From a virus, in the IMG/VR virus record IMGVR_UViG_3300008108_000067, positions 26,890-90,889 of that record: a stretch of 64,000 nucleotides of DNA, one strand, 5' to 3'. The position numbers and the translations under genes are program-made. Shown here piece by piece: positions 39,266 through 53,748 of the stretch. Position 1 is the stretch's first letter; the number at the start of each line of letters is the position of its first letter. The notes under the pieces were generated by a model. That model made no database searches, had not been told where the DNA came from, and saw only the letters and a program-made list of their open reading frames with translations.

Positions 39266-39745
39266 TTATTTAATCGTAACCTTTTTTGTTTCTGGCTCCT
39301 TTGTCAACTTTTGGATTGTAATTATAAGTAAACCATTATTGAACTTCGCATCTACATCTGAGACATCCAATTGGTCACCAACTTTAAACGACCGGCTGAA
39401 AGCGCTTCGCTTCAACTCGCGGAGGAGATAAACTGCTTTATCAGTTTGTTCAGTGGATTGCGATGCCTTACCAGATATAGTGAGAACTCCATCCTGCACT
39501 GAGATATCAATTTCATCTTTTTTATATCCTGCTAATTCTGCTTCAATTAACACAGAATCATCATTTGAAATAACATTGACCTTTGGATATGATGCCTTTC
39601 CAAACGGTTCAACACCTAAATGTTCAAATAATTCGGGAAAACTATTTCGTGTCATATCATCAAACATCTTATCAAACGTGCTGATAAAATTGTCACGACT
39701 ATTTAACACATTGGTACTAAACGGACGAAAAACTAAACGAGTCAT
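39266..39745 (-). CDS. Small heat-shock protein (Hsp20/alpha-crystallin)
   Basis: YPKVNV, ELAGYKKDEIDI, GVLTISG, FSRSF, AKFNNGLLII. Confidence 0.95.
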   Translation of the reverse strand: MTRLVFRPFSTNVLNSRDNFISTFDKMFDDMTRNSFPELFEHLGVEPFGKASYPKVNVISNDDSVLIEAELAGYKKDEIDISVQDGVLTISGKASQSTEQTDKAVYLLRELKRSAFSRSFKVGDQLDVSDVDAKFNNGLLIITIQKLTKEPETKKVTIK

Positions 39746-39830: not shown

Positions 39831-39863
39831 TAAAGTTTATGTAGTTTTAAATTAGTTTATAAG

Positions 39864-39936
39864 AGCCACGAATCGGGTTTGAACCGATGCGCTCCCGCTT
39901 ACAAGGCGGGTGCTCTACCAGCTGAGCTATCGTGGC
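39864..39936 (-). tRNA. tRNA-Thr(TGT)
   Basis: Cloverleaf; anticodon arm CCCGC-CTTGTAA-GCGGG. Confidence 0.93.
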
Positions 39937-39941
39937 GTTTA

Positions 39942-40026
39942 CGGACAGGGAGGGATTCGAACTCTCGGAACCTTTCGGTTCGACGGTTTTCAAGACCGTT
40001 GCAATAGACCACTCTGCCACCTGTCC
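39942..40026 (-). tRNA. tRNA-Ser(TGA)
   Basis: ACGGT-CTTGAAA-ACCGT; long variable arm; G73. Confidence 0.93.
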
Positions 40027-40034
40027 CGAAATAA

Positions 40035-40119
40035 AATAAGAACGCTCCCTATCAAACAGTTACCTGTTCTTCCTGCCACCACAACAAGTGCGCCACACTA
40101 CGCACGGGATGTTCTTATT
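40035..40119 (-). ncRNA. Candidate structured RNA between tRNA-Gly and tRNA-Ser
   Basis: Terminal stem AATAAGAAC..TCCC/GGGA..GTTCTTATT; GTGCG/CGCAC hairpin; AACAG-GTAA-CTGTT GNRA hairpin. Confidence 0.5.
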
Positions 40120-40123
40120 AAAA

Positions 40124-40196
40124 TGGAGCGGTCTGCCAGAGTTGAACTGCTCTTGTAAGCTGGAAGCTTACCGTGCTGACGTTACACTAAGACCGC
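40124..40196 (-). tRNA. tRNA-Gly(TCC), imperfect T-stem, encoded CCA
   Basis: GTAAG-CTTCCAG-CTTAC; acceptor GCGGTCT/AGACCGC; only 3 clean T-stem pairs. Confidence 0.7.
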
Positions 40197-40202
40197 GTGT
40201 TG

Positions 40203-40391
40203 TTACTTGGCTGCTGGACCTTCCTTTGGGGTGACCACGGTTGTGTCTGCTGCCTTGATTGAATCGGTGTTCAACTTAGTTGAATCAACTACCACTACGG
40301 TACTATCAGTGGTAACTTCACCCTGAACTTCTTCTGTCTTGGCACATGCCGTCAAACCAACTACTGCTACTGTAAGGATAAACTTGTACAT
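40203..40391 (-). CDS. Small lipoprotein
   Basis: Signal peptide with lipobox LTAC; GGAG SD before ATG 40391. Confidence 0.75.
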   Translation of the reverse strand: MYKFILTVAVVGLTACAKTEEVQGEVTTDSTVVVVDSTKLNTDSIKAADTTVVTPKEGPAAK

Positions 40392-40452
40392 TATGTACGC
40401 TCCATAAAATGAATAATGAAACAACCATTTAAAAATACTACGATACTACAAG

Positions 40453-40523
40453 TTGCCCTCCATGGAATCGAACCACGATTCGCTGATCCAAAGTCAGCTG
40501 TATTGCCATTATACGAGAGGGCA
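40453..40523 (-). tRNA. tRNA-Gln(TTG)
   Basis: GCTGA-CTTTGGA-TCAGC; U1-A72. Confidence 0.92.
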
Positions 40524-40524
40524 A

Positions 40525-40609
40525 TGGTGGGAAGGGGATTGATAGATTCCACTCTATCCAGCACCCCACGGACTAGAACCGTTTCCCATGCTGTTGCAAC
40601 ATTCCACCA
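40525..40609 (-). ncRNA. Candidate tRNA-like RNA with rearranged arms, ending in ACCA
   Basis: T-loop-like hairpin ACGG-TTCTAGT-CCGT precedes D-loop-like GATAGA-GTGGAA-TCTATC; 3' end TTCCCACCA. Confidence 0.5.
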
Positions 40610-40700
40610 AGTTGCCAAGCGTGTACACCCGCGTTGTATACACAAAACGGTAGAGTTCATTAATTAACGTCAGACCACTCTACCAAGCTGACGGGATCAA

Positions 40701-40793
40701 TTAGTGATTACGCTTACGATTCTTCCAACGATTTCTTCGTTTTTTCGAACCGACCTTTCTCCGACCTTTACCGCACTTTTTAGGATGTGGCAT
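40701..40793 (-). CDS. 30-aa highly basic peptide MPHPKKCGKGRRKVGSKKRRNRWKNRKRNH
   Basis: Manual translation; GGAG SD upstream. Confidence 0.65.
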   Translation of the reverse strand: MPHPKKCGKGRRKVGSKKRRNRWKNRKRNH

Positions 40794-40808
40794 CTCGTTC
40801 TCCAAAAA

Positions 40809-40882
40809 TGGTCCCTGAGGGACTTGAACCCCCGCACTTCGAATTATGAGTTCGCTGCTCTAACCGACTGAGCTAAGGGACC
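40809..40882 (-). tRNA. tRNA(CAT), probably Ile2 (lysidine type)
   Basis: Loop CTCATAA; body GGTCCCTTAGCTCAG resembles bacterial tRNA-Ile2. Confidence 0.8.
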
Positions 40883-40927
40883 GATAACTTCTATACAAGA
40901 GTTACTATTGAAAATTTACATAACCAG

Positions 40928-41001
40928 TCCGCCCCGCAGGACTTGAACCTGCACATCTTCGGTATATAAGACCGCTGCTGTCACCATTTAGCTAGAGGCG
41001 G
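40928..41001 (-). tRNA. tRNA-Ile(TAT)
   Basis: Anticodon arm GCGGT-CTTATAT-ACCGA; acceptor CCGCCTC/GGGGCGG; A73. Confidence 0.85.
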
Positions 41002-41016
41002 ATAATTCTATTTTAG

Positions 41017-41088
41017 TACCGCGTACGGGAATCGAACCCGTCTTACCAGAGTGAAAGTCTAGCGTCCTAGCCGATAGACGAACGCGGC
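41017..41088 (-). tRNA. tRNA-Glu(TTC)
   Basis: CTAGA-CTTTCAC-TCTGG. Confidence 0.93.
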
Positions 41089-41105
41089 ATCACATCAACA
41101 TTAAA

Positions 41106-41134
41106 AATATACATAGTCTGTTACTGTTTGTCAA
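41106..41134 (-). promoter_or_regulatory. Sigma70-type promoter TTGACA-N17-TATATT
   Basis: Immediately upstream of tRNA-Glu. Confidence 0.8.
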
Positions 41135-41147
41135 GCCTTGAATGATA

Positions 41148-41660
41148 TCAAAATCCCCGATATGCCATAATATTAGTTATTTTTTCACCAACTACACTAA
41201 TACTATCTACTACCTTTACTTTTTTATCATCCAAATATACTGTAATTTCATTTACCGATGTTCTGTTATTTTCACCGGAATTATTTACAACAATTCGAAT
41301 TGATTTAAATTGTTCAAATAATTTTCGGTTTTCTTCCAATACAGCTACTTTACCAGTAAATACATTTTCGTTCCATTCCGACAGTACTACATCATCTGCG
41401 TATAGTGTACTTAATCGTTTTAAATCTTTTGCAGAAAATGCATCGAAGTATTCTTTTACTATGTTTCCAATAGGTTTTTCTCTACTTAGTGGAAACAACA
41501 ACCACGCAACTAAATACACAGTAACAATTGGAAGTGGTGAAAAGAAAGAACAAATAAATACAAATCGGATGAATACAGGATCTATATTTAATTGCTCACC
41601 AATTCCTCCGCAAAATCCAGCAAGTCTTTTATTGGTTGCACTACGATAAAATTTTCTCAT
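41148..41660 (-). CDS. PspC-domain and NTF2/SnoaL-like fusion protein
   Basis: FYRSATNKRLAGFCGGIGEQLNIDPVFIR (PspC); YFDAFSAKDL...LYADDV (SnoaL-like). Confidence 0.8.
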   Translation of the reverse strand: MRKFYRSATNKRLAGFCGGIGEQLNIDPVFIRFVFICSFFSPLPIVTVYLVAWLLFPLSREKPIGNIVKEYFDAFSAKDLKRLSTLYADDVVLSEWNENVFTGKVAVLEENRKLFEQFKSIRIVVNNSGENNRTSVNEITVYLDDKKVKVVDSISVVGEKITNIMAYRGF

Positions 41661-41676
41661 ATATTCTCCTAGTTAG

Positions 41677-41750
41677 TCGGGGCGGAGGGATTTGAACCCC
41701 CGACCTCCTGCTCCCAAAGCAGGCGCGATACCAGGCTACGCTACGCCCCG
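41677..41750 (-). tRNA. tRNA-Pro(TGG)
   Basis: CCTGC-TTTGGGA-GCAGG. Confidence 0.95.
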
Positions 41751-41753
41751 AAG

Positions 41754-41834
41754 TGCTCTCGGTGAGACTCGAACTCACAAGCCTTGCGGCAGCAGTTTTT
41801 GAGACTGCCATGTATACCATTCCATCACAAGAGC
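41754..41834 (-). tRNA. tRNA-Leu(CAA)
   Basis: GCAGT-CTCAAAA-ACTGC; long variable arm. Confidence 0.93.
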
Positions 41835-41871
41835 GTTCATTACTTCCATTCATTCATTAACATTTTAAATG

Positions 41872-42098
41872 TGTAGTACAGCGGGAAAGGTGTTGTCCTG
41901 CAATCGGGTGATGAGTAGTTGCAACTCTTATCTGTGTATCGTCGTTATTCATCCTCAACTCAATGGAGTTGTTATCGGATATTTTTCTGCACGACCACCC
42001 CTATACATCGTCGTTATTCATCCTAACCCCAGGGGGTTTTCATCAGACGCCTTTCCATACGACCACTAACCGGCTAAGAGCCGTCCTGCTGTACTACA
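41872..42098 (-). ncRNA. Candidate 227-nt structured RNA with two tandem homologous domains
   Basis: 15-bp terminal stem; 18-nt direct repeat at 41938 and 42007; covarying internal hairpins. Confidence 0.65.
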
Positions 42099-42169
42099 TG
42101 GCTCGCTTGGGAGTCGAACCCAACTTTCTAGGTTATGATCCTAGCGTGACACCAGTTCACTTGCCAGCT
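42099..42169 (-). tRNA. Atypical or degenerate tRNA(CAT)
   Basis: CTAGG-ATCATAA-CCTAG; canonical T-arm; acceptor has A1-C72 and G5-G68 mismatches. Confidence 0.6.
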
Positions 42170-42217
42170 ACTGAAATTCTACACCTTGCCATATATTCAA
42201 TGATTTCCTTATTTTCA

Positions 42218-42246
42218 AGTATAATCAATGCTTCTTCTAATGTCAA
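42218..42246 (-). promoter_or_regulatory. Sigma70-type promoter TTGACA-N17-TATACT
   Basis: Upstream of the atypical tRNA(CAT) and the 227-nt RNA. Confidence 0.7.
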
Positions 42247-42366
42247 GTATTTAATTACCATAATATTCTCGTGTTGTAAAACATAACGACAGGACTTACG
42301 ACATAAGACATTCCATTCTTTCTGTTCGCCTACTACCAGTGGGTTGGTGGTTATCGTTATGTTTAG

Positions 42367-42438
42367 AGCACGTGGCGGGAATCGAACCCGCGTCTCTAGC
42401 TTGGAAGGCTAGGATAATAGCCATTATATGACACGTGC
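42367..42438 (-). tRNA. tRNA-Gly(TCC)
   Basis: CTAGC-CTTCCAA-GCTAG. Confidence 0.92.
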
Positions 42439-42537
42439 GGCGAGGTCTTTTTCACGCAGTTCCTCATCTTCGGTCTGGCACGATTCCAGACGAGTTGCGC
42501 TTGCTTTTAAGCTGCTTTCAACCCCCACAACTATTTT

Positions 42538-42747
42538 TTATTCAGAAAAATACTTATTCAAAGTTTCTAACTTATCATCGGCATCAACAAGCATCTGTAA
42601 TGCTTCTTCTGCATTCTTATAAAAATCACCAGTAGAATGGTCACCAATCCCAACAGGAACATTCATCAACAAGTCCAGTGAGAGAAGTGCCTTCTGTCGT
42701 TCTGCTTCTGCTTGCGTTCGTAACATTTCAACTACACGTGCTTTCAT
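42538..42747 (-). CDS. Small hypothetical protein (PVGIGDHS motif)
   Basis: GGAGG SD before ATG 42747. Confidence 0.75.
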   Translation of the reverse strand: MKARVVEMLRTQAEAERQKALLSLDLLMNVPVGIGDHSTGDFYKNAEEALQMLVDADDKLETLNKYFSE

Positions 42748-42767
42748 AATAACCTCCATTAGTAAAA

Positions 42768-42841
42768 TGGACGCTGAGGGATTCGAACCCCCGACATTTT
42801 GCGTGTAAAGCAAACACTCTAACCAGCTGAGTTAAGCGTCC
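42768..42841 (-). tRNA. tRNA-Val(TAC)
   Basis: TTTGC-TTTACAC-GCAAA. Confidence 0.93.
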
Positions 42842-42938
42842 GTTGTTGTCTATGAAGCCCTTTCACAAAATGTCGGACAACGCGACTACCGAGCGCAAGT
42901 ATACGCGTATCAAGCTGGGCCGCCCTCGGAATTAAAAA

Positions 42939-43011
42939 TGGATCCAGTCGGGATCGAACCGACGACCTTTCGCTTGCAAAGCGGATGCTCTCCCAGCTGA
43001 GCTATGGACCC
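42939..43011 (-). tRNA. tRNA-Ala(TGC)
   Basis: G3-U70; loop TTTGCAA. Confidence 0.94.
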
Positions 43012-43577
43012 GTGTTGTACGGAATTAAATTTAACAAGTATTCCTGATTTGTCAAGAACCATTCATACGTTAAATTTTCTGGTATTTCTATTAATTGGTT
43101 TTGACCACGTTCTAAAATGGTTAATCCCAACTCTATGTTAAATGTTTTAACAGAAAAATCTGTACGTTGACTTCTGAATTTTGCTACTGCTTTCCACACA
43201 TCTCCTGTCCACAATCCACGTTCACATAATTCTGTGTGGTGTGGCATTGGTGAACGTTGCATCAATTCGGTATGTGGTTTTGTATCGTGAACAAATATGA
43301 TACCATTATCATTTAGATGTCGAATGCTGTTATCTATATCTCTTAGGACTTGATTACATTCGTGGTCACCATCAATGAAAATAATATCATACATTTCGGT
43401 ACAGTTTTCAAAAAACTCATCAGATGTCATAGGGTATAACATATCTTTGTTATATGGATCTACCCCGTGCTTGATTGCACATTCTACATTGTAAAATGTA
43501 CCACCGTTACTAACACCGATTTCTAAGTATCTTGTATAATTTCGTTCAGCAATTACAGAATTAAATAATTCAAACAT
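43002..43577 (-). CDS. Class I SAM-dependent methyltransferase (Methyltransf_24-like)
   Basis: YLEIGV, DIIFIDGDH, GIIFVHD, WTGDVWK; start at 43577 after the GGAG SD. Confidence 0.85.
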   Translation of the reverse strand: MFELFNSVIAERNYTRYLEIGVSNGGTFYNVECAIKHGVDPYNKDMLYPMTSDEFFENCTEMYDIIFIDGDHECNQVLRDIDNSIRHLNDNGIIFVHDTKPHTELMQRSPMPHHTELCERGLWTGDVWKAVAKFRSQRTDFSVKTFNIELGLTILERGQNQLIEIPENLTYEWFLTNQEYLLNLIPYNTGP

Positions 43578-43589
43578 ATTTTCTCCAAG

Positions 43590-43661
43590 AGCGAGAGATG
43601 GGATTCGAACCCACGACAACGTGCTTGGCAAGCACGGACTCTACCACTGAGCTACTCTCGC
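43590..43661 (-). tRNA. tRNA-Gly(GCC)
   Basis: CGTGC-TTGCCAA-GCACG. Confidence 0.93.
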
Positions 43662-43666
43662 ATTTA

Positions 43667-43831
43667 CTACACAGGACCAACTTCATAATGCGTCAATACT
43701 TTTCCTTTTAATGCTGCTTGTGCATCAACATCATTACGAAACATCGTAATAGCTGCCGTTGCTTCAGGTGCCATATATGTAAAATCCATACTACCACCAT
43801 CAAAATATATTTTTACTAAATATTTACTCAT
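43667..43831 (-). CDS. 54-aa hypothetical protein MSKYLVKIYFDGGSMDFTY...
   Basis: Manual translation; fills the gap between two tRNAs. Confidence 0.6.
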   Translation of the reverse strand: MSKYLVKIYFDGGSMDFTYMAPEATAAITMFRNDVDAQAALKGKVLTHYEVGPV

Positions 43832-43839
43832 ATAGTTAG

Positions 43840-43922
43840 TGCTCCTGGTCGGACTCGAACCGACAAGCCTTGTGAGCGAGAGATTTTAAGTCTCTTGTGT
43901 TTACCGATTTCACCACAGGAGC
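43840..43922 (-). tRNA. tRNA-Leu(TAA)
   Basis: AGAGA-CTTAAAA-TCTCT; long variable arm. Confidence 0.93.
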
Positions 43923-43937
43923 AAAATTGGATGAGTT

Positions 43938-44133
43938 GTTGTAGTATCCTCTCATTTTATAGAGAAGAATTTACCTATCATCATTAGTGCCATCCTCACT
44001 AATGTTTATCCATACACGTTGATTTCTACTTACGGACTCTTCCCCTGCACCGTTGTAGTGGTGTCTCGACGTAAGGATCATAGAGAAGTCGTGTGGCGCG
44101 GGTTTAAACCATACCGCGGGTAAATTCTACAAC
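43938..44133 (-). ncRNA. Candidate ~200-nt multibranched structured RNA
   Basis: Nested stems GTTGTAG/CTACAAC, AATTTACC/GGTAAATT, CGCGG/CCGCG, CACG/CGTG, CTTACG/CGTAAG, CATTAGTG/CACTAATG. Confidence 0.55.
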
Positions 44134-44158
44134 CACCTTTACATTTTTTAATCAGCAG

Positions 44159-44232
44159 TGCCCCCACTAGGACTCGAACCTAGAACTTACTGGTTAAAAG
44201 CCAGCTACTCTGACCAATTGAGTTATGGAGGC
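44159..44232 (-). tRNA. tRNA-Lys(TTT)
   Basis: GCTGG-CTTTTAA-CCAGT. Confidence 0.93.
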
Positions 44233-44249
44233 GTTTAACTTACACAAGT

Positions 44250-44278
44250 AATATATATTACCCACGTACAAATGTCAA
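44250..44278 (-). promoter_or_regulatory. Sigma70-type promoter TTGACA-N17-TATATT
   Basis: Immediately upstream of tRNA-Lys. Confidence 0.8.
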
Positions 44279-44305
44279 GCCCCCAATCTAAATAAATAGT
44301 AAATA

Positions 44306-44419
44306 TTATTTTTTTCGTTTTTTTGGAGTCTTTTTTACGGTTGTAGATTTTACTTTTATTCTAGCTTGCCACGATTTCTTTGGTTTTCTCGTGTGTGACT
44401 TTCTTCGTGTCCATGCCAT
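44306..44419 (-). CDS. 37-aa highly basic peptide MAWTRRKSHTRKPKKSWQARIKVKSTTVKKTPKKRKK
   Basis: Manual translation; AGGAG SD upstream. Confidence 0.6.
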   Translation of the reverse strand: MAWTRRKSHTRKPKKSWQARIKVKSTTVKKTPKKRKK

Positions 44420-44439
44420 ATATACATTTCTCCTATTAA

Positions 44440-44526
44440 CGGAAGAGGTGGGATTCGAACCCACGGTAGGAATTACCCTACGGCTGTTTAGTAGACAGCT
44501 GCCTTAAACCACTCGGCCACCCTTCC
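44440..44526 (-). tRNA. tRNA-Ser(ACT), unusual A34 anticodon
   Basis: GCTGT-CTACTAA-ACAGC; Ser-type body with long variable arm and G73. Confidence 0.88.
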
Positions 44527-44531
44527 AACAC

Positions 44532-45557
44532 TCACTGATAATCAGCTCTCCAAACATTGCTTGTTTCTGAGTAACTTTCATTCAATATTTTTAACGAGTA
44601 TTCTACGTAATTATCACCATCAAACCAACCAGAACCCTTATGCTTAACCATATCTACATATCCACGAAGTTGAATTTTTGTGATATTATGGTTACCTGCT
44701 TGTAGAAAATATTGTACAGTTCCACCTTTATCGTGACTAATAGTTAATTGTAACTTATCACTTCCAAATTCTTTCCACAATTGTTCCAAATCTTCATGTT
44801 GTCCTTTATGTGCTTTAAATTCATTTGGATAATGACAAGAAATCCAATTAAATTTATGTAGATTAGCACATTCTCGTGACAATCCCACAAAATCATTTCT
44901 AACCTTTTGTTGTTGCAAATTAAAAACTAGTCGTGGATTGTTTATATAATGTTTATCCGATAATCGTTCGTTTACTGTTAATTTCCGTATCATATAATCG
45001 TATGTTAATGAATTTTCATCATATATGTCCATACGCACAGGTTCATCAAAGATATATTCTTTTTCTTTGTATCTGAAATTATACGGATACGCATCTCCAG
45101 CCAACGAAACAAATACAGAACGATTAACCGTTGTTAATCCTTGAATTGAGTCCAAATGATTTTTAAAATTTGGAAGAAACTCAATGTCGGTGTCGGTATG
45201 AAAAATCCAATCGGCATCAAAGAAATTATATTTTTTGGAATAGTCAAACATCATATTCATGTTTAACCCAATCTTTGCAAACCAATGTTGGCTTTTCATA
45301 AACTCTACTGATTTTTCTGGAAGTTCCATTTCATTAACATTACGAACTTCTACGATATCTTCCAATCCAAAATCTTTAACACGTTGCCACGTTAAACTAT
45401 CTTCTGATTTTTCTGGATTTGCATTGTTAAAAAGTATAACCTTAGTTTCAAAATGTGGAACTACGTTAACTTTTAAAGAAGCCAAATAAAGATTTATGTA
45501 TCGTAAATCTTCTTCTTCATTTGTTTTTCCACAAGTTGATAGTATCAAAATTTTCAT
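44532..45557 (-). CDS. Putative GT-A fold glycosyltransferase-like protein
   Basis: WIFHTDTDIEF DxD motif; start at 45557 after the GGAG SD. Confidence 0.5.
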   Translation of the reverse strand: MKILILSTCGKTNEEEDLRYINLYLASLKVNVVPHFETKVILFNNANPEKSEDSLTWQRVKDFGLEDIVEVRNVNEMELPEKSVEFMKSQHWFAKIGLNMNMMFDYSKKYNFFDADWIFHTDTDIEFLPNFKNHLDSIQGLTTVNRSVFVSLAGDAYPYNFRYKEKEYIFDEPVRMDIYDENSLTYDYMIRKLTVNERLSDKHYINNPRLVFNLQQQKVRNDFVGLSRECANLHKFNWISCHYPNEFKAHKGQHEDLEQLWKEFGSDKLQLTISHDKGGTVQYFLQAGNHNITKIQLRGYVDMVKHKGSGWFDGDNYVEYSLKILNESYSETSNVWRADYQ

Positions 45558-45572
45558 AATTTCTCCAAAATA

Positions 45573-45646
45573 CGGAATGGACGGGACTCGAACCCGCAAC
45601 CCCCGCAGTGACAGTGCGGTGCGCTAACCGATTGCGCCACCACTCC
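45573..45646 (-). tRNA. tRNA-Asp(GTC)
   Basis: CCGCA-CTGTCAC-TGCGG. Confidence 0.94.
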
Positions 45647-45655
45647 CAGCAACAA

Positions 45656-45913
45656 TTATTTAATTTTACTCTGCGTTACTGTTTCGTAAAGTTTTTCAAA
45701 CTCTTGATGCGTTGCTACTTCGTCATCAAAATTCTGCTTGTGATACGTCTTTGCTAACTTACGAAAAACTTTCTTGTTAAGTTGAAGTTCTTCACAGATA
45801 TCATTGATAATGTTTTTCTGTAAGTCTCGTTCTGCGGAAATTCGTGTCATAGATACACTCATATCCTTTAATGCACCTTCCAACTTCAACTTGTCATTCG
45901 GTGTTAAATTCAT
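45656..45913 (-). CDS. Double-stranded DNA-binding protein (T4 DsbA / GapR-like)
   Basis: SMTRISAERDLQKNI...KKVFRKLAKTYHKQNF...FEKLYE. Confidence 0.75.
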   Translation of the reverse strand: MNLTPNDKLKLEGALKDMSVSMTRISAERDLQKNIINDICEELQLNKKVFRKLAKTYHKQNFDDEVATHQEFEKLYETVTQSKIK

Positions 45914-45955
45914 AATAACCTCGTTGTTGTGATGTTGTAAATAAAATGTTTTTCG

Positions 45956-46051
45956 TTATGAATCTTCTTTTTCTAAGAATCTAGCAATGTATACAGTTCC
46001 ACCCACTGCACACATCATAACCACTAAAAATATTAGAATTGCGGATAACAT
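45956..46051 (-). CDS. 31-aa membrane peptide MLSAILIFLVVMMCAVGGTVYIARFLEKEDS
   Basis: AGGAG SD; one TM segment. Confidence 0.55.
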   Translation of the reverse strand: MLSAILIFLVVMMCAVGGTVYIARFLEKEDS

Positions 46052-46069
46052 ATTTTCTCCTATGGTAAG

Positions 46070-46142
46070 CTCCCAGAGAGGGACTCGAACCCCCGACCCG
46101 GTGATTAACAGTCACCTGCTCTACCGACTGAGCTATCTGGGA
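46070..46142 (-). tRNA. tRNA-Asn(GTT)
   Basis: GGTGA-CTGTTAA-TCACC. Confidence 0.94.
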
Positions 46143-46264
46143 ATATTGTGAGATTCGCACTCACTTGGGGTCATTCAGCAACATCTACATATCAGCAGTT
46201 GCCACCGATATGTCTCTGGTATCAGCCTTCACCCCTAGCTTACCAAATTAAAACTTATCTTCCT

Positions 46265-47389
46265 TTATGGTACTATAACTACCTTTGCATTATCCGAAAC
46301 TGTTCCAATTGATGCCGAAACAAATGTGGTTCCTGGCGCGATACCCAACAAAAGACCAATATTCGACACTCGTGCTGTTGCATTGTTAGTGGTGGTCCAC
46401 TCAAACGGACGACCATTCAGTGCTGCGACACTCAAAGGAACACTATCAGCATCAAATGCTGTGGCTGTGTATTGACGGGTAGCACCCACCTTCAGGTCTG
46501 AACTATCAGGTGAAACCACAATGTAATCAATACCCACTTCTGTTACATTCACCACCAATGTACCCACTCTGTTTTCAACAACACAAGTAATAATCGTGGT
46601 ACCGTAGGTAAGGCCTGTGATTACACCCGTTGCAGAAACGGTAGCAATGGATTCATCACTACTATGCCAACCAAATGTGCGTTGTGCAGCGGTCAGTGCT
46701 GTACCTGAACTGTTACGCAAATCTGCGACAACTGTTGCAGGGCGTCCAACATGAGCTGGCTTAGGCAATGTGAGAAGTACACGAGCGACAGGAACCAAAG
46801 ATACCGTGACGTTCAACGTACCTGTTTTTCCACCCGAAGTTGCGGTAATAGTAGTTGTACCTGCCGACAATGCAGTAATCAATCCTGTTGCGGACACTGA
46901 GGCGACGGCTGGCGTGCTTGATGTCCAAGTAGTGGTGAATGATGTCAGTGTATTATTTCCACTGTCCCGTGCAACAGAGGTTGCCTGTAATGTCTGACCA
47001 ACAAAAAACGTAGGCGGTACAGTTGCCGTTACTGTGACAGTAGCTACTGTTGGGTCTGTTACGAAAATCGTAGCAGTTGCGAATTTACCACCCACTGCCG
47101 CTGTAATTGTAGCTTGACCCTTGGATACTCCTGTTACTAACCCATTAACAACTGTTGCGACCGATGTATTATTTGATGACCATGCAACTGTTTGATCTCT
47201 CATAACAGAATCACGTTGATCTTTAACAGTGGGCGTGATGTTAATTGTACGTCCAATTTCAAGTTGTGTAGCAGTAACATTTAATGATACTGTTGTTACC
47301 GCCGGTGTTACTGGAGCCGTAACAACGGCTTCTTCCGTGCACGCGGTAATACTCAATGCCAACAATGTTCCATACAAAATACGCTTCAT
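46265..47389 (-). CDS. Lipoprotein with four bacterial Ig-like (Big_2) domains
   Basis: Lipobox ITAC; four repeats of W-x-S/T...VA-x-V...G-x-V/I/L...G-x-T/A. Confidence 0.88.
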   Translation of the reverse strand: MKRILYGTLLALSITACTEEAVVTAPVTPAVTTVSLNVTATQLEIGRTINITPTVKDQRDSVMRDQTVAWSSNNTSVATVVNGLVTGVSKGQATITAAVGGKFATATIFVTDPTVATVTVTATVPPTFFVGQTLQATSVARDSGNNTLTSFTTTWTSSTPAVASVSATGLITALSAGTTTITATSGGKTGTLNVTVSLVPVARVLLTLPKPAHVGRPATVVADLRNSSGTALTAAQRTFGWHSSDESIATVSATGVITGLTYGTTIITCVVENRVGTLVVNVTEVGIDYIVVSPDSSDLKVGATRQYTATAFDADSVPLSVAALNGRPFEWTTTNNATARVSNIGLLLGIAPGTTFVSASIGTVSDNAKVVIVP

Positions 47390-47457
47390 TTTTTTCTCCT
47401 ACTAAGGTAATCCGACACAACCGAGTGTTGTGCCTTCTAAGCCGGGATATCCCGACA

Positions 47458-47529
47458 CAGGCCCACTAGGACTCGAACCTAGACAAACGCTTTTGGAGAG
47501 CGTTGTGCTGCCAATTACACCATGAACCC
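47458..47529 (-). tRNA. tRNA-Trp(CCA)
   Basis: ACGCT-CTCCAAA-AGCGT. Confidence 0.92.
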
Positions 47530-47533
47530 AGAG

Positions 47534-47607
47534 TACACCAGGCTAGAGTTGAACTAGCGACCTTTCGTGTATCAGACGAATGCTCTAACCAACTGAGCTA
47601 CTGGTGT
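47534..47607 (-). tRNA. tRNA-Ile(GAT)
   Basis: TTCGT-CTGATAC-ACGAA. Confidence 0.92.
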
Positions 47608-47620
47608 GCATCTTACAAAA

Positions 47621-47703
47621 TGGGAGTGGTTGGACTCGAACCAACGTAGATTATTAATCGGCAGATTTACAGTCTGCTGCCATTGCCGCTAGGCGACACT
47701 CCC
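47621..47703 (-). tRNA. tRNA-Tyr(GTA)
   Basis: GCAGA-CTGTAAA-TCTGC; long variable arm. Confidence 0.93.
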
Positions 47704-47709
47704 AAACTA

Positions 47710-48291
47710 CTATTTTTTCAAATCGTTTTTGATGTCTCGTTTGACCTTTTTAAGATAACCAATTCGCGTTTCATTGTCAACGAATGGTACACTCCAAAAC
47801 TGTCGTGTATTTGTCTTAAACCACCCAAATACAAATGAATATACTCCTAATACTAACCGTAATTTTACGGCATTGAAATATAACATATATACAGGAAGTG
47901 CGGGTGCTCCGTGTGTTAAGTATGTACGAACCTTTTTGTGTGACAATAATGGTTTTGGATAACCATATTTTGGAATTAACGGAACAAACTTATATGCGAA
48001 TCCTGGTGTGAATACCACATCAAAGAATTCTTCCATTAGTGGTGTACACCGAAACCACCACACAGGTGATATAATGTAAATTCTATCTGCCCATGTCACC
48101 AACTCTTGATAATGTTTAATAACTTCTTTCTTTTTGATGGAAAGATCATCTTTATAGAGGTCAATGACTTCTATGGTTTGTGTAGATTCATAGCTTGCGT
48201 TATTAGTTAATTCGTCTTTAATGGTTTTAAAAATACCATTATAACAAAAACTTTTCTTATCAGGATGTCCGATGACTATTAAATTGTTCAT
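47710..48291 (-). CDS. Flavodoxin-like NAD(P)H-dependent oxidoreductase
   Basis: IGHPDKKSF, IDLYKD, SPVWWF, VFTPGFAY. Confidence 0.88.
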   Translation of the reverse strand: MNNLIVIGHPDKKSFCYNGIFKTIKDELTNNASYESTQTIEVIDLYKDDLSIKKKEVIKHYQELVTWADRIYIISPVWWFRCTPLMEEFFDVVFTPGFAYKFVPLIPKYGYPKPLLSHKKVRTYLTHGAPALPVYMLYFNAVKLRLVLGVYSFVFGWFKTNTRQFWSVPFVDNETRIGYLKKVKRDIKNDLKK

Positions 48292-48319
48292 TTCACTCCT
48301 TGTAAAAGTTATAAAACAA

Positions 48320-48393
48320 TAGCGGGGGAGGGATTCGAACCCTCGACCTCACGATTATGAGTCGTGCGCTCTCACCAACTGAGCTACCCTGCC
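48320..48393 (-). tRNA. tRNA-Met(CAT), elongator type
   Basis: CACGA-CTCATAA-TCGTG. Confidence 0.9.
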
Positions 48394-48545
48394 ACTTTTC
48401 GAATGTATACTTTAAACCAAATAAATATTTTATCTAAATTGGAAAACGTTCTCCAATTCTTAACTTCGTTAATTGTACGATAACATCCTACACAACGTGT
48501 ACCTTCAAGTTTACATATTTTTTTACACGGAGAATTTATAACCAC
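48384..48545 (-). CDS. DUF1289-like small Cys protein (53 aa, GTG start)
   Basis: SPCKKICKL...CVGCYRTINEVKNW; manual translation. Confidence 0.75.
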   Translation of the reverse strand: MVINSPCKKICKLEGTRCVGCYRTINEVKNWRTFSNLDKIFIWFKVYIRKVAG

Positions 48546-48814
48546 CGAAATATTCCTGTTATGTCAATTAGTATCCATACCGCATTGACAATAACCATTG
48601 GATAATCTTTCTTATTAAAGAAACTGTGTAACATTCCACCGTGTCCAAAAAAGAAAAGTAAATATGGTATCCACATAGGAATGTTAGGAATTCTACCAGC
48701 TAATATAATTCCACCCACAATTAAAATTAATACAGCCCACCATTTACGTTTAACAATAATGTGCTCTTCTGTTTCTGTTAAAGTTACTGGTTTCGCAAAT
48801 AAAATATTTTTCAT
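48536..48814 (-). CDS. Small multi-pass membrane protein
   Basis: Three hydrophobic segments. Confidence 0.7.
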   Translation of the reverse strand: MKNILFAKPVTLTETEEHIIVKRKWWAVLILIVGGIILAGRIPNIPMWIPYLLFFFGHGGMLHSFFNKKDYPMVIVNAVWILIDITGIFRWL

Positions 48815-48966
48815 TTATATTGACCAGTATCTATTGAATTCTGGATATCACCACCTTGTAACACTTCTGGTTCGGTATCCCCTATAAACATAATAACACC
48901 AAAAAATATCATTACAACAATAACCAAAGTAGTTGCGATTACTTTTTTAACTTGTTTAGTATCCAT
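48811..48966 (-). CDS. Small single-pass membrane protein
   Basis: Start moved to ATG 48966 (AGGAG SD); the longer ORF reads through tRNAs. Confidence 0.6.
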   Translation of the reverse strand: MDTKQVKKVIATTLVIVVMIFFGVIMFIGDTEPEVLQGGDIQNSIDTGQYK

Positions 48967-48985
48967 AATATAATCTCCTATAAAA

Positions 48986-49068
48986 AGGTGCGAGCCAGAT
49001 TCGAACTGGCGTGGGATTTCTCCAAAGGTTTTGCAGACCCGTGCCTTCAGCCACTCGGCCATCGCACC
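48986..49068 (-). tRNA. tRNA-Cys(GCA) with a long variable arm
   Basis: Loop CTGCAAA; U73; extra arm TGGAGAAATCCCAC. Confidence 0.85.
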
Positions 49069-49071
49069 GTA

Positions 49072-49145
49072 TGCTCCTGGAGGGACTCGAACCCCCAACC
49101 CACTGAGTAGAAATCAGTTGCGCTATCCAATTACGCCACAGAAGC
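49072..49145 (-). tRNA. tRNA-Arg(TCT)
   Basis: ACTGA-TTTCTAC-TCAGT. Confidence 0.92.
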
Positions 49146-49179
49146 AGTTAATGTATTTGACCAAATTACAAAATATATT

Positions 49180-49539
49180 TTATTTACCTAAACTATGTCG
49201 AATAGGTTTTCCTGTTTCATCAACACACACAAATACCATCTCATCAATATCAACAATAACTTTTTGTGTAGTTAAATCTCGTACTTGCACTTCCAAAGTA
49301 ATAGAAGTTTTTCCAACGGTTTTTAACGCCACTCCGATTTCAACAACATCCCCTTGATATGCAGGTGCAACAAAGTTAATAGCAGACATACTTTTTGTCA
49401 CAACTTTTTTATGTCGGGTTTCAATTGCCGCATAAATTGATGCTTCTTCGTCAACCCAAGCCAAACACCGGCCCCCGAACAATGTGCCGTTTATATTTAA
49501 ATCACCTGGTTGCACCAATTTTCTAGTTAAGAATCTCAT
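49180..49539 (-). CDS. Acyl-CoA thioesterase (hotdog fold)
   Basis: PGDLNINGTLFGGRCLAWVDE, INFVAP, VGKTSI. Confidence 0.9.
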   Translation of the reverse strand: MRFLTRKLVQPGDLNINGTLFGGRCLAWVDEEASIYAAIETRHKKVVTKSMSAINFVAPAYQGDVVEIGVALKTVGKTSITLEVQVRDLTTQKVIVDIDEMVFVCVDETGKPIRHSLGK

Positions 49540-49560
49540 AAAATTTTTGTTTAAATGTTA

Positions 49561-49634
49561 TGCCCCAAGCAGGAGTCGAACCCACAACCCTCTGATCCGA
49601 AGTCAGATGCTCTATCCAATTGAGCTATTGAGGC
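49561..49634 (-). tRNA. tRNA-Arg(TCG)
   Basis: TCTGA-CTTCGGA-TCAGA; A20 in the D-loop. Confidence 0.9.
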
Positions 49635-49637
49635 GTA

Positions 49638-49706
49638 TCAGGTAGGAGGGAGTCTCTCCCCCCGTTCCACAGGCGGGTGCCCCTACCATCTGGGCCGCAT
49701 ACCTGA
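49638..49706 (-). ncRNA. tRNA-His(GTG)-like element lacking a canonical T-loop
   Basis: D-arm GCCC-AGATGGTAG-GGGC; anticodon loop CTGTGGA; T-arm replaced by GGGAG-AGA-CTCCC. Confidence 0.5.
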
Positions 49707-49738
49707 ATTATGTTTTCATATAATACCATTGGGAATAA

Positions 49739-50116
49739 TTATATTTTTCTTACGCTGCCATCTTCGTTTTCGGTACACTTTCGAAACCAAATTACGCCTG
49801 CTTCATTTCTATGTTTTCCGAAACACAATACCGCGGTGATACCAAAATTCCACGGATCATTAGGGTTAACCTTCTTGCCATTCACTCGTAACTGCGTGGG
49901 ATTCTTTTTGAACTGTCCTTTACTCTTGACGAATCCAGCCGATTCAAAGACATCCAGTATGGTTTGTTTTTCTGGTAATTCAATAAATCGTAAACCAACT
50001 GCGAACACACAATCTGCCACACTATTTCTATCCAGCTTCGTACATGTCATCACATCTTCTAATGAGGTGATATCATTAAAATCTTCGGGAGTTAAAAACG
50101 GCTTTTCATCATCCAT
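49739..50116 (-). CDS. Hypothetical protein with an S4-like RNA-binding motif
   Basis: ILDVFESAGFVKSKGQF...LRVNGKKV resembles the TyrRS C-terminal S4 domain. Confidence 0.55.
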   Translation of the reverse strand: MDDEKPFLTPEDFNDITSLEDVMTCTKLDRNSVADCVFAVGLRFIELPEKQTILDVFESAGFVKSKGQFKKNPTQLRVNGKKVNPNDPWNFGITAVLCFGKHRNEAGVIWFRKCTENEDGSVRKI

Positions 50117-50119
50117 GTA

Positions 50120-50527
50120 TTAATCCCATAATCCTTCGTAATATTTTCCAAACAATCGAAGTCCATTAATGATACGTACTTGGTTTACATATTTTTCCGT
50201 CCAAGTGCAATTTTGTTTACTTTCAAAGGCAAAAATCATTTCATCCATGACCCAATCCCATCGCTTAAAATAATTGTCATCCGTATCCCAATCATTTTCA
50301 GTCGGTGGAGCTGCTGATTTGCGAAGGTGTTCGGGAACATCTTCGTCATCAACATGTGGTGCGCCGTGTTTTGTTTCTTTCAATTGCTTAAGCATAGGAA
50401 GAATGATATGCGCTAATGTCACATCCATGCTCCATGTATCCCATGGATCAATTTTCACAGAAATCTTCTGTTCTTTGTTTGAATCTTTTGGATAGCGACC
50501 AATGGAAACTTTCATATTAATATTCAA
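50120..50527 (-). CDS. Phage hypothetical protein
   Basis: DPWDTWSMD...RWDWVMDEMIFAF...GLRLFGKYYEGLWD. Confidence 0.75.
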   Translation of the reverse strand: MNINMKVSIGRYPKDSNKEQKISVKIDPWDTWSMDVTLAHIILPMLKQLKETKHGAPHVDDEDVPEHLRKSAAPPTENDWDTDDNYFKRWDWVMDEMIFAFESKQNCTWTEKYVNQVRIINGLRLFGKYYEGLWD

Positions 50528-50810
50528 CCTTGATATAATGTTCTGTTGTGAGATGCATCTTTTTACGATAGAAATGTTTCATCTTGTAAGCCAACATTAC
50601 AACTACAACTATAAAATTGAAAATATAATTCATCATCAATGGAATATTCCACAACATAATAGCATACGTTGTCATGAATATTTCACCAATAAACCAAAGT
50701 AACAACATAGGCCAACCGATATGACATCGTTTATCCGTAATGGTTCTAAACAACTCCGGAATAGCATTAATCGTGAGAAAAATACTCCCTATATATCCAA
50801 TCGTTTCCAT
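50517..50810 (-). CDS. PQ-loop/SemiSWEET-like membrane protein
   Basis: IGYIGSIFLTINAIPEL; three TM segments; PLMMNY. Confidence 0.7.
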   Translation of the reverse strand: METIGYIGSIFLTINAIPELFRTITDKRCHIGWPMLLLWFIGEIFMTTYAIMLWNIPLMMNYIFNFIVVVVMLAYKMKHFYRKKMHLTTEHYIKVEY

Positions 50811-50832
50811 ATTATTTACCCAAATGTTTTTA

Positions 50833-50916
50833 TGCACTCGGAGGGACTCGAACCCCCAATCCATTTCTGGAACTTGCTCCTAAGGCAAGCGCGTAGACCA
50901 ATTCCGCCACGAGTGC
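50833..50916 (-). tRNA. tRNA-Leu(TAG)
   Basis: CTTGC-CTTAGGA-GCAAG; long variable arm. Confidence 0.93.
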
Positions 50917-50925
50917 AACAACTAC

Positions 50926-51549
50926 TTAAAACTTCGTCTGGTCACGTTCCGCAGAACACGCCATATGGTCAGCCCAATGAATAATATACGGAAGATTTGT
51001 TTTCATTGGATATACCGAATGATTCTTCAAATAAGCCTTGTTACTATCATCATACATACCATCAGACAACTTGATTGCAATAAATTCCTTTTCCGTAACA
51101 GGAATCTCAAACTTTTGTAGAAGGTACAATGCACGGTCAGTAACAGTCATATACTGAATGTTATCATTGTACTTGTACATCTCCCCACGTTTACGATGCC
51201 AATCACTGTCTTGGTCAAGATAATAAGCACCTTGCTCATTACCCAACTTACCCAAGTCGTGATGTAATGCTGCGAAAATCATTTCTTGCTTGGTAAAATC
51301 AATATCACCACCGATTGCTTTGTATACGGTAGCGACCTTCATAGATGCCTCTGCAACGTGAACTACGTGGTCAAGGTATCCGCCAGGAAATGCATTATGA
51401 TAGTGAACCTTTCCCGATGCAGGTGCTGAAATAAGCTGCTCTCCAAACACTTCATACATCTGATTTAGCTTTTCTAGACGAGAATCTTCGGCAAGAAATG
51501 CATTGAACTTCTCTAAGTTTTTCTTAGCTTTCTCTTCGTAGTCAAACAT
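50926..51549 (-). CDS. HD-domain phosphohydrolase
   Basis: APAS...HNAFPGGYLDHV...ALHHDLGK...HWAD. Confidence 0.88.
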   Translation of the reverse strand: MFDYEEKAKKNLEKFNAFLAEDSRLEKLNQMYEVFGEQLISAPASGKVHYHNAFPGGYLDHVVHVAEASMKVATVYKAIGGDIDFTKQEMIFAALHHDLGKLGNEQGAYYLDQDSDWHRKRGEMYKYNDNIQYMTVTDRALYLLQKFEIPVTEKEFIAIKLSDGMYDDSNKAYLKNHSVYPMKTNLPYIIHWADHMACSAERDQTKF

Positions 51550-51559
51550 AACCGTTTCC

Positions 51560-52246
51560 TTAGTAATTAAAGTTTTGGAAATCCTCTGTATACAACTCCC
51601 TTAACAAATATAACAGTGTGGGGTCCGAAAAGTCAACCCCCAAATTATTAGGATATCTTCTATATAAAGTATTATCTAAATTATACCCTAATTTATTTTT
51701 TATGAAATTCGATAAATTTTCTCTATTTTCGTATTTAAAAATAGTTAATTTTTGTTGTGGTCCTTCCAATAAAAAAGTTTGTGATACAATAAACGGTACT
51801 CGTAAACAATTATCTGTATAACTTGTTATAGATTTACCAAATCTATCTTTAATACTATCGGCCACGTTGGTCCAATAATCACTTTCACCATTTTTATATA
51901 CTGCTCTAAAAAAATCTTTACGTTGACTTTTTAATATCAACATATCTTTTATAAAGAGTATTGTATCTAGTGTAGTAGGTAATTTATCAACGTGTACTTT
52001 ACACTTACCACACATACATACACTAAAAATGTGATTTAATCCAGACCGAAATCTATTCACAGGATGACGAACAGTTGTAAATGAATCAAGTATTCCATAC
52101 TGAGATATTAATTCTTCGTATGAACTATGCGTCTGTTCATTTACATCCATATAAGGGAAAAATGTTCTCATCACTGCCGTAGATGCAGTTTTGGGAACAT
52201 TTACCCATAACCATTGTTTATCTTCAATTTTAGATTGAATTAACAT
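51560..52246 (-). CDS. Sulfotransferase family 2-like protein
   Basis: VPKTASTA (5'-PSB loop), VRHPVNRFRS (3'-PB motif), YTEDFQNFNY. Confidence 0.8.
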   Translation of the reverse strand: MLIQSKIEDKQWLWVNVPKTASTAVMRTFFPYMDVNEQTHSSYEELISQYGILDSFTTVRHPVNRFRSGLNHIFSVCMCGKCKVHVDKLPTTLDTILFIKDMLILKSQRKDFFRAVYKNGESDYWTNVADSIKDRFGKSITSYTDNCLRVPFIVSQTFLLEGPQQKLTIFKYENRENLSNFIKNKLGYNLDNTLYRRYPNNLGVDFSDPTLLYLLRELYTEDFQNFNY

Positions 52247-52247
52247 T

Positions 52248-52775
52248 TTATACTATTAAGGTCACCCTATTTGTTCTAGATTGCTGTCTGGTCCATAGTT
52301 CAAAGATTGTAGGAACCGTTGGTACTTTTAGTAATACCATATTTACATCATCCAATAGCTTGTCTGCTTTTTTATTATTACACGTACTACAACTTGTAAC
52401 TACATTTGTCCACTCATCCTTACCACCCTTTGCTACTGGATGTATGTGGTCACGAGTAAGAAACTCATGTGATTTCATCTGATTACGTGTACGTCCGCAA
52501 TACTGACAAGTGTATGCGTCACGGACAAATAGATTTTTTTGTGTAAGTAATGCTGGCGTCCTAAATACCCGACGACCCTTGATATAGTGTTTCAGAGCAA
52601 TCATCAGTGGTATAGGAAACGTTTGCCTTGGTGACCGTACCACCAAATTCGGATGTTCCTCAACTATGATAGCCTTTCCTTCCAAAAACATCAACAATGC
52701 TCGTTTGGAAGATACCACTGTAATGGGTTCGTACGTGGCATTTAGAACAACACACTTTGTTGTTTCCAACGCCAT
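52248..52775 (-). CDS. HNH endonuclease (McrA-like)
   Basis: LNATYEP, RDAYTCQYCG, TRDHIHP, NVVTSCSTCNNKK. Confidence 0.93.
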   Translation of the reverse strand: MALETTKCVVLNATYEPITVVSSKRALLMFLEGKAIIVEEHPNLVVRSPRQTFPIPLMIALKHYIKGRRVFRTPALLTQKNLFVRDAYTCQYCGRTRNQMKSHEFLTRDHIHPVAKGGKDEWTNVVTSCSTCNNKKADKLLDDVNMVLLKVPTVPTIFELWTRQQSRTNRVTLIV

Positions 52776-52779
52776 AAAT

Positions 52780-53115
52780 TTACTCCTGAGGTTTGATATC
52801 GTTTAGTAATTGATTGATACTCTTGTCCGTTAACATTTGTAATATGTCACGTGCCTTTGCTGCTGTTTCGTAATCTTCTTCCTCAATAGAATATTTCATA
52901 GCATCCTTCAAAACAATTTCGTACTCAGATTGTCGTACAACAGCAACGTGAGTATGTTTGTTGTTTATAGGATTTATCTGGAATAGTTCTACCTTATCTA
53001 AATTTTCCCGAATACCTTTTTTAATTTGTTTTATTAAATATTTGTATACTACTAATCTATTTTCATTCAGAAATTTCTGAATTATATAGAAAGGTTTCGG
53101 TGGTAGGTTTAACAT
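52780..53115 (-). CDS. Hypothetical protein with a UVR (UvrB/C) motif
   Basis: IEEEDYETAAKARD. Confidence 0.7.
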   Translation of the reverse strand: MLNLPPKPFYIIQKFLNENRLVVYKYLIKQIKKGIRENLDKVELFQINPINNKHTHVAVVRQSEYEIVLKDAMKYSIEEEDYETAAKARDILQMLTDKSINQLLNDIKPQE

Positions 53116-53483
53116 TACTTATCCTTCTTTTTAATATTCTTTTTCTTAGTTACTTTCTTAATTACTTTCTTCTTTGCCGCAGTTTTTGTAGGAGTGTCGG
53201 TTTCACCCGTTTCTACTCCTTTACAAAATACTCGTCCATCGGTATGAACATATCTGGTTTTGAAATGCCACCCACGAGGAAATTTTTCACCTTCTGGTTT
53301 TTTCTGTGTACTGGGTGGTGGTGCAATCATTCGTTGTACGCAGTATGCGCAGGTCACTCGACCAATATCCGCTGCAACTTCTACTTCTTCATTATTACAT
53401 TCACCACAAGTCAAATACCTACGACCAGTAACCCGAAGTGCTTCCGTCTTTGTCAACCGCTTAATTCTACGCTTCAATGCCAT
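53115..53483 (-). CDS. Zinc-binding basic hypothetical protein
   Basis: CGEC...CAYC; PRGWHF; Lys-rich tail. Confidence 0.7.
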   Translation of the reverse strand: MALKRRIKRLTKTEALRVTGRRYLTCGECNNEEVEVAADIGRVTCAYCVQRMIAPPPSTQKKPEGEKFPRGWHFKTRYVHTDGRVFCKGVETGETDTPTKTAAKKKVIKKVTKKKNIKKKDK

Positions 53484-53484
53484 G

Positions 53485-53748
53485 TTAACCTCGTGCTTTC
53501 CAAAGTCTGTATTGTTTATTCCACCGAGCTTCGAGAAACTTCACTTTGTTTTTTGCCCAACTAGGAGAGTTTAGTTCTTTAACTATGTCGTTTAATTCAA
53601 GTATGCGAATTCTTGCGTTAAACAACTGTGCTAAAGTTTTTGCTTCGACAATCAACGACATCACCTTCATATATTCGGATTCAATATACTCTTTTTTTGA
53701 GTCTGTTCCAAATATACTGTTAAGGTAGTGTTTAATTTCTTCATACAT
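53485..53748 (-). CDS. Hypothetical protein
   Basis: 87-aa ORF with GGAG SD. Confidence 0.65.
   Translation of the reverse strand: MYEEIKHYLNSIFGTDSKKEYIESEYMKVMSLIVEAKTLAQLFNARIRILELNDIVKELNSPSWAKNKVKFLEARWNKQYRLWKARG

Follow-up and report, generated by a model that had tools for sequence, protein, structure and literature searches.

A conserved structured RNA family upstream of tRNA-Gln in the tRNA arrays of freshwater tailed phages

Results and discussion

The hairpins first noted at 40525-40609 on the minus strand of the window (the whole 64,000-nucleotide stretch of viral DNA analyzed here) are the 3' part of a conserved structured non-coding RNA of about 175 bases. In our preferred reading, which we hold with a probability of about 0.55, this RNA ('type A') is one of a family of non-coding RNAs of 174-187 nt, compact and with two pseudoknots each, that are present once per genome and released from a tRNA array; the family is undescribed in the sense that Rfam has no match to it. 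The family, its fold, its strand, and its position are established by comparison of homologous sequences. Its members sit in the tRNA arrays of uncultured tailed phages from freshwater, which form one clade, and tRNA-Gln always follows immediately downstream. In the long tRNA arrays of large phages the spacers are usually taken as filler; here one of them is a conserved RNA whose fold matches that of a riboswitch or ribozyme in intricacy, with presumed tRNA-processing sites at its bounds.

Genomic setting

The window comes from an IMG/VR virus record that is 90.9 kb long and about 47% complete; the G+C content is about 37%. The phage is a tailed one, having a T4-type large terminase and baseplate wedge proteins. 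ARAGORN and Rfam locate 27 tRNA genes and a tmRNA gene, all on the minus strand, between 39.8 and 54.1 kb. (The exact span is 39863-54124, minus strand; the tmRNA tag is GNYTLALAA, and tRNA-Ile(UAU) and tRNA-Ser(ACU) are among the set.) The preliminary description held that most tRNAs here lack an encoded CCA, and the case proves stronger than that: none of the 27 has an encoded 3' CCA, nor has the tmRNA, so that the phage would be fully dependent on a CCA-adding enzyme. The features that frame the element are these:

40524-40697, minus strand: whole conserved type A element, 174 nt, from an alignment (A3) of 8 homologues, plus L075
40452-40523, minus strand: tRNA-Gln(UUG), lying 3' of the element in all members; its 5' end is the presumed RNase P site
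41106-41134, minus strand: promoter-like site TTGACA-17-TATATT, with 11 of 12 consensus matches in a consensus scan alone

The promoter-like site, read from 41134 to 41106, is the closest found upstream on the strand of the element and lies upstream of tRNA-Glu. Past it the order is tRNA-Glu, tRNA-Ile(UAU), tRNA-Met, a 30-codon ORF, the element, tRNA-Gln, and a lipoprotein-like ORF. In the window, the element starts 3 nt past the stop codon of the 30-codon ORF and ends with the base preceding tRNA-Gln; in record coordinates it is G000:67413-67586. Every genome searched has a single copy.

Homologues

Pattern scans and a neighbor-protein search of IMG/VR and JGI metagenomes gave nine distinct sequences from about 16 viral or metagenome contigs (the window, L063, L009, L018, L040, L041, L048, L054, and L075), of which L063 differs from the window by 1 nt. 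All members are from phages with large tRNA arrays; several of the homologue contigs, 92-192 kb long, carry such an array. The members come from about five lineages in lake metagenomes, and because the family is this narrow, few independent events lie behind the covariation described below. Elsewhere the searches were negative. A blastn search of 50,697 phage records matched the tRNA-Gln part only; an exact 17-mer of the element had no matches, and a 16-mer found L009 and 12 chance matches; a scan of 185,579 prokaryote species genomes gave one chance match and no element. A metagenome scan returned the known lineages again, with one near-identical copy and three chance matches. The Rfam collection, searched with all models at E <= 10, had no match to the type A element.

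The three-way junction

The minus-strand segments originally quoted (GGGAA, ACGG-UUCUAGU-CCGU, GGGG, GAUAGA-GUGGAA-UCUAUC, CCCC, UUCCC, and ACCA) are exact. They form a three-way junction with a short tail:

40529-40587, minus strand: three-way junction, from covariation and RNAalifold
40587-40584 with 40532-40529, minus strand: stem 1 of the junction
40582-40579 with 40571-40568, minus strand: stem of hairpin A, with loop A at 40578-40572 (N-UCUAG-N)
40567-40564 with 40536-40533, minus strand: stem C of the junction
40558-40553 with 40546-40541, minus strand: stem D of the junction, with loop D at 40552-40547 (UGGAA)
40524-40528, minus strand: single-stranded 3' tail, ACCAU in the window; its length of 5-7 nt is kept and its sequence is variable

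ACCA itself is 40528-40525, with a single base between it and tRNA-Gln; in the window, RNAalifold has the A of ACCA paired as well, to the U preceding stem 1.

The minimum-energy fold that RNAfold gives for the window copy (-24.2 kcal/mol) is the three-way junction described. As a single-sequence fold it is unremarkable: z is -1.75, and 12 of 200 shuffles fold equally well. Comparison of homologues is more telling. Homologues that preserve the stems were found, all four helices being kept across 8 distinct sequences, with standard pairs in 96.5% of cells. Changes on both sides occur in 11 of the 18 pairs, and sliding the partners by 1-3 columns in the same 8 sequences reduces this number to 0-2. 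RNAalifold, run independently, yields the identical four helices, and they also appear when the sequences are parsed by segment length. A covariance model (R1) built from L018, L040, L041, L048, and L054 only, leaving out the window lineage, picks out the window copy (37.9 bits, E about 5e-9) and no other site in the window. The two strands of stem 1 read GGGA/UCCC or GGGG/CCCC; stem C occurs as GGGG/CCCU, AGGU/ACCU, and GACA/UGUC, and stem D as GAUAGA/UCUAUC, GGGUG/CACCC, and GGGUAU/AUACCU. G-U pairs occur, among them the outer one of stem D in 4 sequences; on the opposite strand they would be C-A, and so the structure is read on the tRNA strand. On this covariation the hairpins are a real conserved structure, beyond a chance fold.

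In all 8 sequences a run of 5-6 nt in loop A is complementary to loop D, in a register that differs by lineage (UUCUA with UGGAA, or UCUAG with CUGGA). Shuffled loops reach a complementary run of the same length in 2.5-20% of trials, so a contact between the two loops is no more than a possibility. A UCUAGA palindrome is present in five members.

The 5' part of the element

The element is larger than first noted, and consists of a 5' pseudoknot, two hairpins, a probable second pseudoknot, and the three-way junction; conservation starts at 40697. Two further hairpins (40668-40693 and 40621-40643) had been proposed as possible parts of the same transcript. Both exist, as stem S1 of the first pseudoknot (PK1) and hairpin HP2, and both belong to the same conserved unit:

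40668-40693, minus strand: PK1 stem S1 (CGUCAG/CUGACG), 40693-40688 with 40673-40668; 95.8% of cells paired
40649-40684, minus strand: PK1 stem S2, the S1 loop (40684-40677) with 40656-40649; 4 of 8 pairs changed on both sides
40621-40643, minus strand: HP2, from per-sequence folds and L075
40596-40615, minus strand: HP3 (GCAAC/GUUGC), near-invariant, with another hairpin in its place in L041
40589-40593, minus strand: 5' strand (CAGCA) of the probable second pseudoknot, PK2, pairing with 40563-40559 (UGCUG)

PK1 is an H-type pseudoknot within the first 50 nt of the element. Overall 91.9% of its cells are paired and 5 pairs are changed on both sides, as against 32-47% paired in slid controls. 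The closing pair of S1 goes from G-C to A-U in 3 sequences, and an invariant GUUAA follows S1; in S2, L041 has AAUGG/UCAUU replacing UAGAG/CUCUA. The stem of HP2 has a distinct sequence in each lineage, and in the lineages examined other than L041 its loop of 7-8 nt carries a similar G/C-rich motif.

In PK2, the linker from HP3 to stem 1 would pair with the internal loop that separates stems C and D, on its 5' side, and the two strands vary in concert. The PK2 variants are CAGCA/UGCUG in the window, AAGGUU/AACCUU in L018, AAGGA/UCCUU in L040, and AAGG/CCUU in the others, and at pair 116-155 there are 5 sequences with A-U and 3 with C-G. We grade this second pseudoknot as probable because about two independent events lie behind it. 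A competing extension of HP3 (GCU/AGC) varies on one strand only, and PK2 is preferred for that reason. Two other candidate pairings were rejected: in the window loop D could pair with the T arm of tRNA-Gln, and the HP3 loop with the ACCA tail, but these pairings are lost in L009 or L018. In all, sequence comparison finds compensatory changes in six helices of the element.

Is the element a tRNA mimic, a ribozyme, or a chance structure?

The preliminary description interpreted the 3' part as a permuted tRNA-like module, in which a T-like arm precedes a D-like arm. It was right that there is a genuine structured minus-strand RNA that includes the upstream hairpins; the mimicry of a tRNA or of YrlA did not hold. 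In such a mimic, YrlA-like or aminoacylatable, stem 1 and ACCA would be the acceptor end and the T- and D-like loops an elbow for tRNA-binding factors. The idea draws on the invariant UC of loop A and GG of loop D, on the complementarity of these loops, on the single continuous 5' strand shared by stem 1 and hairpin A, and on the presence of ACCA in the window lineage although the phage tRNAs encode no CCA. The ACCA end is, however, restricted to the window, L009, and L063 (with ACC in L018); tails across the family are ACCAU, ACCUAU, UUCUAC, UCUGA, UCUAC, UCUAU, and CUGCUUC, so that CCA is missing in 5 of the 9 members, and the supposed 5-bp acceptor is a stem of 4-5 bp, as against the 7-bp acceptor helix of a tRNA. 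Loop A retains the closing G-C pair and U55, C56, and A58 of the T-loop consensus (U54-U55-C56-R57-A58), but among the 8 distinct 3' domains position 54 (loop position 1) is G in 4, and all 8 have U in place of a purine at position 57. As for the D-loop-like hairpin, its UGGAA is indeed invariant and complementary to loop A, but the arm lengths misfit a tRNA elbow: the 'D-like arm' is the tip of a long arm whose internal loop would pair with the 5' flank in PK2, which is un-tRNA-like, giving about 15 stacked pairs on the loop D side against the 4 bp of hairpin A. Neither tRNA models (ARAGORN and Rfam RF00005) nor the YrlA model (RF02553) has a match at 40524-40697, even at E <= 10. On G000 the YrlA model gives sub-threshold matches at other places in the tRNA array (on annotated tRNAs in three cases), and none at 67413-67586. 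The element does resemble YrlA in having a 7-nt UUC-containing loop followed by a GG-containing loop inside a closed stem; unlike YrlA, it is missing the closed acceptor-like hairpin between the arms and does not keep the T-loop consensus. A Ro60/TROVE gene (PF05731), whose presence had been suggested as a check, is absent from the four related phage records searched (G000, G002, G004, and G005, with G004 89% complete), and control genomes were positive. Nor does the suggestion that the 7-nt loop is a CUA anticodon fare better: G would frequently occupy position 32, TAG is simply a rare stop codon (3 of 57 long frames end in it), and nothing points to read-through, with no fusion arising when these stops are read through. 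We consider a tRNA mimic improbable.

A new self-cleaving ribozyme that trims the neighboring tRNA end, as do the HDV-like 'theta' ribozymes downstream of phage tRNAs, appears to us to be similarly far-fetched. The compact, doubly pseudoknotted fold with invariant single-stranded bases would suit one, as would the abutment of the element to tRNAs on both sides in two lineages, and PK1 is superficially like the P1-plus-pseudoknot of pistol. In the pistol layout the loop of a hairpin joins a downstream strand in a pseudoknot of 6-8 bp, and a hairpin follows (PMC4604425). PK1 likewise is a hairpin whose loop is pseudoknotted to a downstream strand and which is followed by a hairpin; unlike pistol, the element has no identified P2 helix or fixed 2-nt cleavage junction, and no ribozyme family, the Pistol model RF02679 included, matches it at E <= 10. 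The strands of S2 and S1 leave no room between them for an HDV-type P3, three-way-junction linkers of 0-2 nt exclude a hammerhead core, and the bases at both boundaries of the element are variable. A protein-coding explanation was also rejected, as an 89-codon frame at 40391-40660 crosses tRNA-Gln and the homologues have indels that are not multiples of three. That the spacer is a decayed tRNA gene or a functionless chance inverted repeat is hardly credible. The unremarkable single-sequence fold given above would agree with such an origin, and tRNA pseudogenes would be plausible within a tRNA array; the covariation already contradicts it, with compensatory changes in six helices, the tRNA model detects no residual similarity, and the window and L009 share 96% identity in the spacer as against 83% in tRNA-Gln.

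The tRNA-Gln site, the peptide ORF, and a second RNA

The 3' boundary of the element is constant, lying 5-7 nt before tRNA-Gln(UUG) in every member. What lies on the 5' side varies. In the window, L009, L018, L040, and L054 the element begins 3-8 nt past the ORF stop codon. In the L048 group and L075 it exactly fills the gap between tRNA-Glu and tRNA-Gln, and in L041 it also lies between these two tRNAs, with 65 extra bases. (In L041, a 166.6-kb relative, these 65 nt from tRNA-Glu to the element, 1249-1313 on the plus strand, hold a Shine-Dalgarno-like site and a 19-codon frame that terminates within stem S1 of the element.) L041, L048, and L075 thus have the element without the peptide ORF, and L028, L021, and L039 have the ORF without the element, which makes element and ORF independent modules. 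In L028 the ORF and tRNA-Gln are present while both type A and the second RNA described below are absent, which indicates that the element is dispensable for tRNA-Gln.

The 30-codon ORF (40701-40793, minus strand) has a Shine-Dalgarno site and encodes a very basic peptide (MPHPKKCGKGRRK...). More than 20 viral contigs carry the peptide almost without change, and where the window and L018 differ the changes are synonymous. It has no match in Pfam or NCBIfam; in a protein atlas it finds unnamed small basic peptides only, plus a weak eL41-like lead (0.88).

In about 12 contigs an unrelated structured RNA of about 237 nt ('type B') lies between the peptide ORF and tRNA-Gln. It is represented by L022:7780-8020 (minus strand), with matching stretches in L020, L023, L024, L026, L029-L033, and L038, and its hairpins include one with UUCG and another whose loop is CUGAUAY. 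Type B folds with an alifold energy of -50 kcal/mol, and its compensatory changes are clear and many. Type B is matched neither by R1 nor by Rfam. Type A was not found in the type B genomes G005 and G006, and the two types never occur together in the genomes searched. The use of one position by type A and an unrelated type B suggests that tRNA arrays also produce other phage RNAs.

Proposed release from the array and possible roles

The tRNA region of phage T4 yields a pair of small RNAs, named RNAC and RNAD, whose role is unknown (PMC3014915). Like these (the species 1 and 2 RNAs), the element is a small non-tRNA RNA within a phage tRNA cluster, on the tRNA strand and bounded by presumed tRNA-processing sites. 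It differs from them in having no sequence similarity (blastn against the 50,697 phage records), and its fold of two pseudoknots and a three-way junction is known from sequence comparison alone. Its exact fit into the gap between tRNA-Glu and tRNA-Gln in two lineages gives it the look of an RNA of its own that tRNA-processing enzymes excise, as has been proposed for RNAC and RNAD. This small family, with its well-defined fold, could serve the study of what RNAs of this kind do.

RNase P acting at a downstream tRNA or tRNA-like structure is known to form the 3' end of upstream RNAs, as in tRNA punctuation and in the MALAT1-mascRNA pair. The 3' end of the element would likewise come from RNase P acting at a tRNA 5-7 nt downstream and be protected by local structure; unlike at MALAT1, the downstream structure is a genuine phage tRNA-Gln, protection would be by a stem and pseudoknot with no triple helix, and the processing is our proposal. 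We infer processing, stability, and action in trans, as follows. The element and the neighboring tRNAs would be transcribed as a single precursor, which RNase P would cut at the 5' end of tRNA-Gln to leave a tail of 5-7 nt after a G-C-rich stem. In the lineages in which tRNA-Glu is the direct neighbor, the 5' end of the element would be set a few bases before PK1 by the 3' processing of this tRNA; in the window type, the element would either remain joined to the mRNA of the 30-codon ORF or be cut from it. Structure reaching both ends would make the released RNA stable, and the invariant single-stranded motifs (GUUAA, the HP2 and HP3 loops, UCUAG, UGGAA, and AAU) could serve tertiary folding and partner recognition.

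The main rival to release as a separate RNA is a purely cis role, the tRNA mimic, the new ribozyme, and an oligomerizing RNA being minor possibilities. Here the element would be a spacer or leader that insulates the adjacent tRNAs during folding and processing and, after the RNase P cut, a barrier to 3' exonucleases that stabilizes the mRNA of the 30-aa peptide. The placement just after the ORF stop in five of the sequences, the stable stem 5-7 nt before the RNase P site, and the different structured RNA that other contigs hold at the same ORF-to-tRNA-Gln place all speak for this. Against it, no ORF lies upstream of the element in the L041, L048, and L075 lineages, the element is missing from L028 despite its ORF and tRNA-Gln, and two pseudoknots with several invariant loops exceed what an exonuclease block needs. 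We regard a cis role as possible, at well below the standing of a released RNA.

More speculatively still, the element may stand for a new functional class of RNA that host tRNA-processing enzymes free from phage tRNA arrays. The phi29 packaging RNA, GOLLD, and ROOL are phage RNAs built on junctions, with complementary loops able to pair between molecules, and GOLLD and ROOL often lie beside phage tRNAs. The element shares with them the complementary loops A and D and, in five members, the palindromic UCUAGA; it differs from GOLLD and ROOL in being much smaller and in having no Rfam match, and its loop contact could equally be within one molecule. From the double-pseudoknot core and the complementary loops (UCUAG with UGGA) one could envisage an RNA that assembles with itself head to tail or as a dimer, as those RNAs do, or a decoy for a host factor that reads tRNA elbows or anticodon loops, for instance a tRNA-targeting defense nuclease. 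We find either role rather doubtful. If it were true, type B in the sister phages would be a functional alternative at the same site.

Other genes of the window phage

Directly downstream of the tRNA array lies a gene for a small heat-shock protein of the Hsp20 family (39266-39745, minus strand; phrog_432, E 6e-26). Further away, a 348-aa protein (59874-60920, minus strand) matches phrog_1211, '2-aminooxy adenylosuccinate synthetase' (E 7e-68), and presumably resembles PurZ. If it is PurZ-like, 2-aminoadenine may stand in for adenine in the DNA of this phage.
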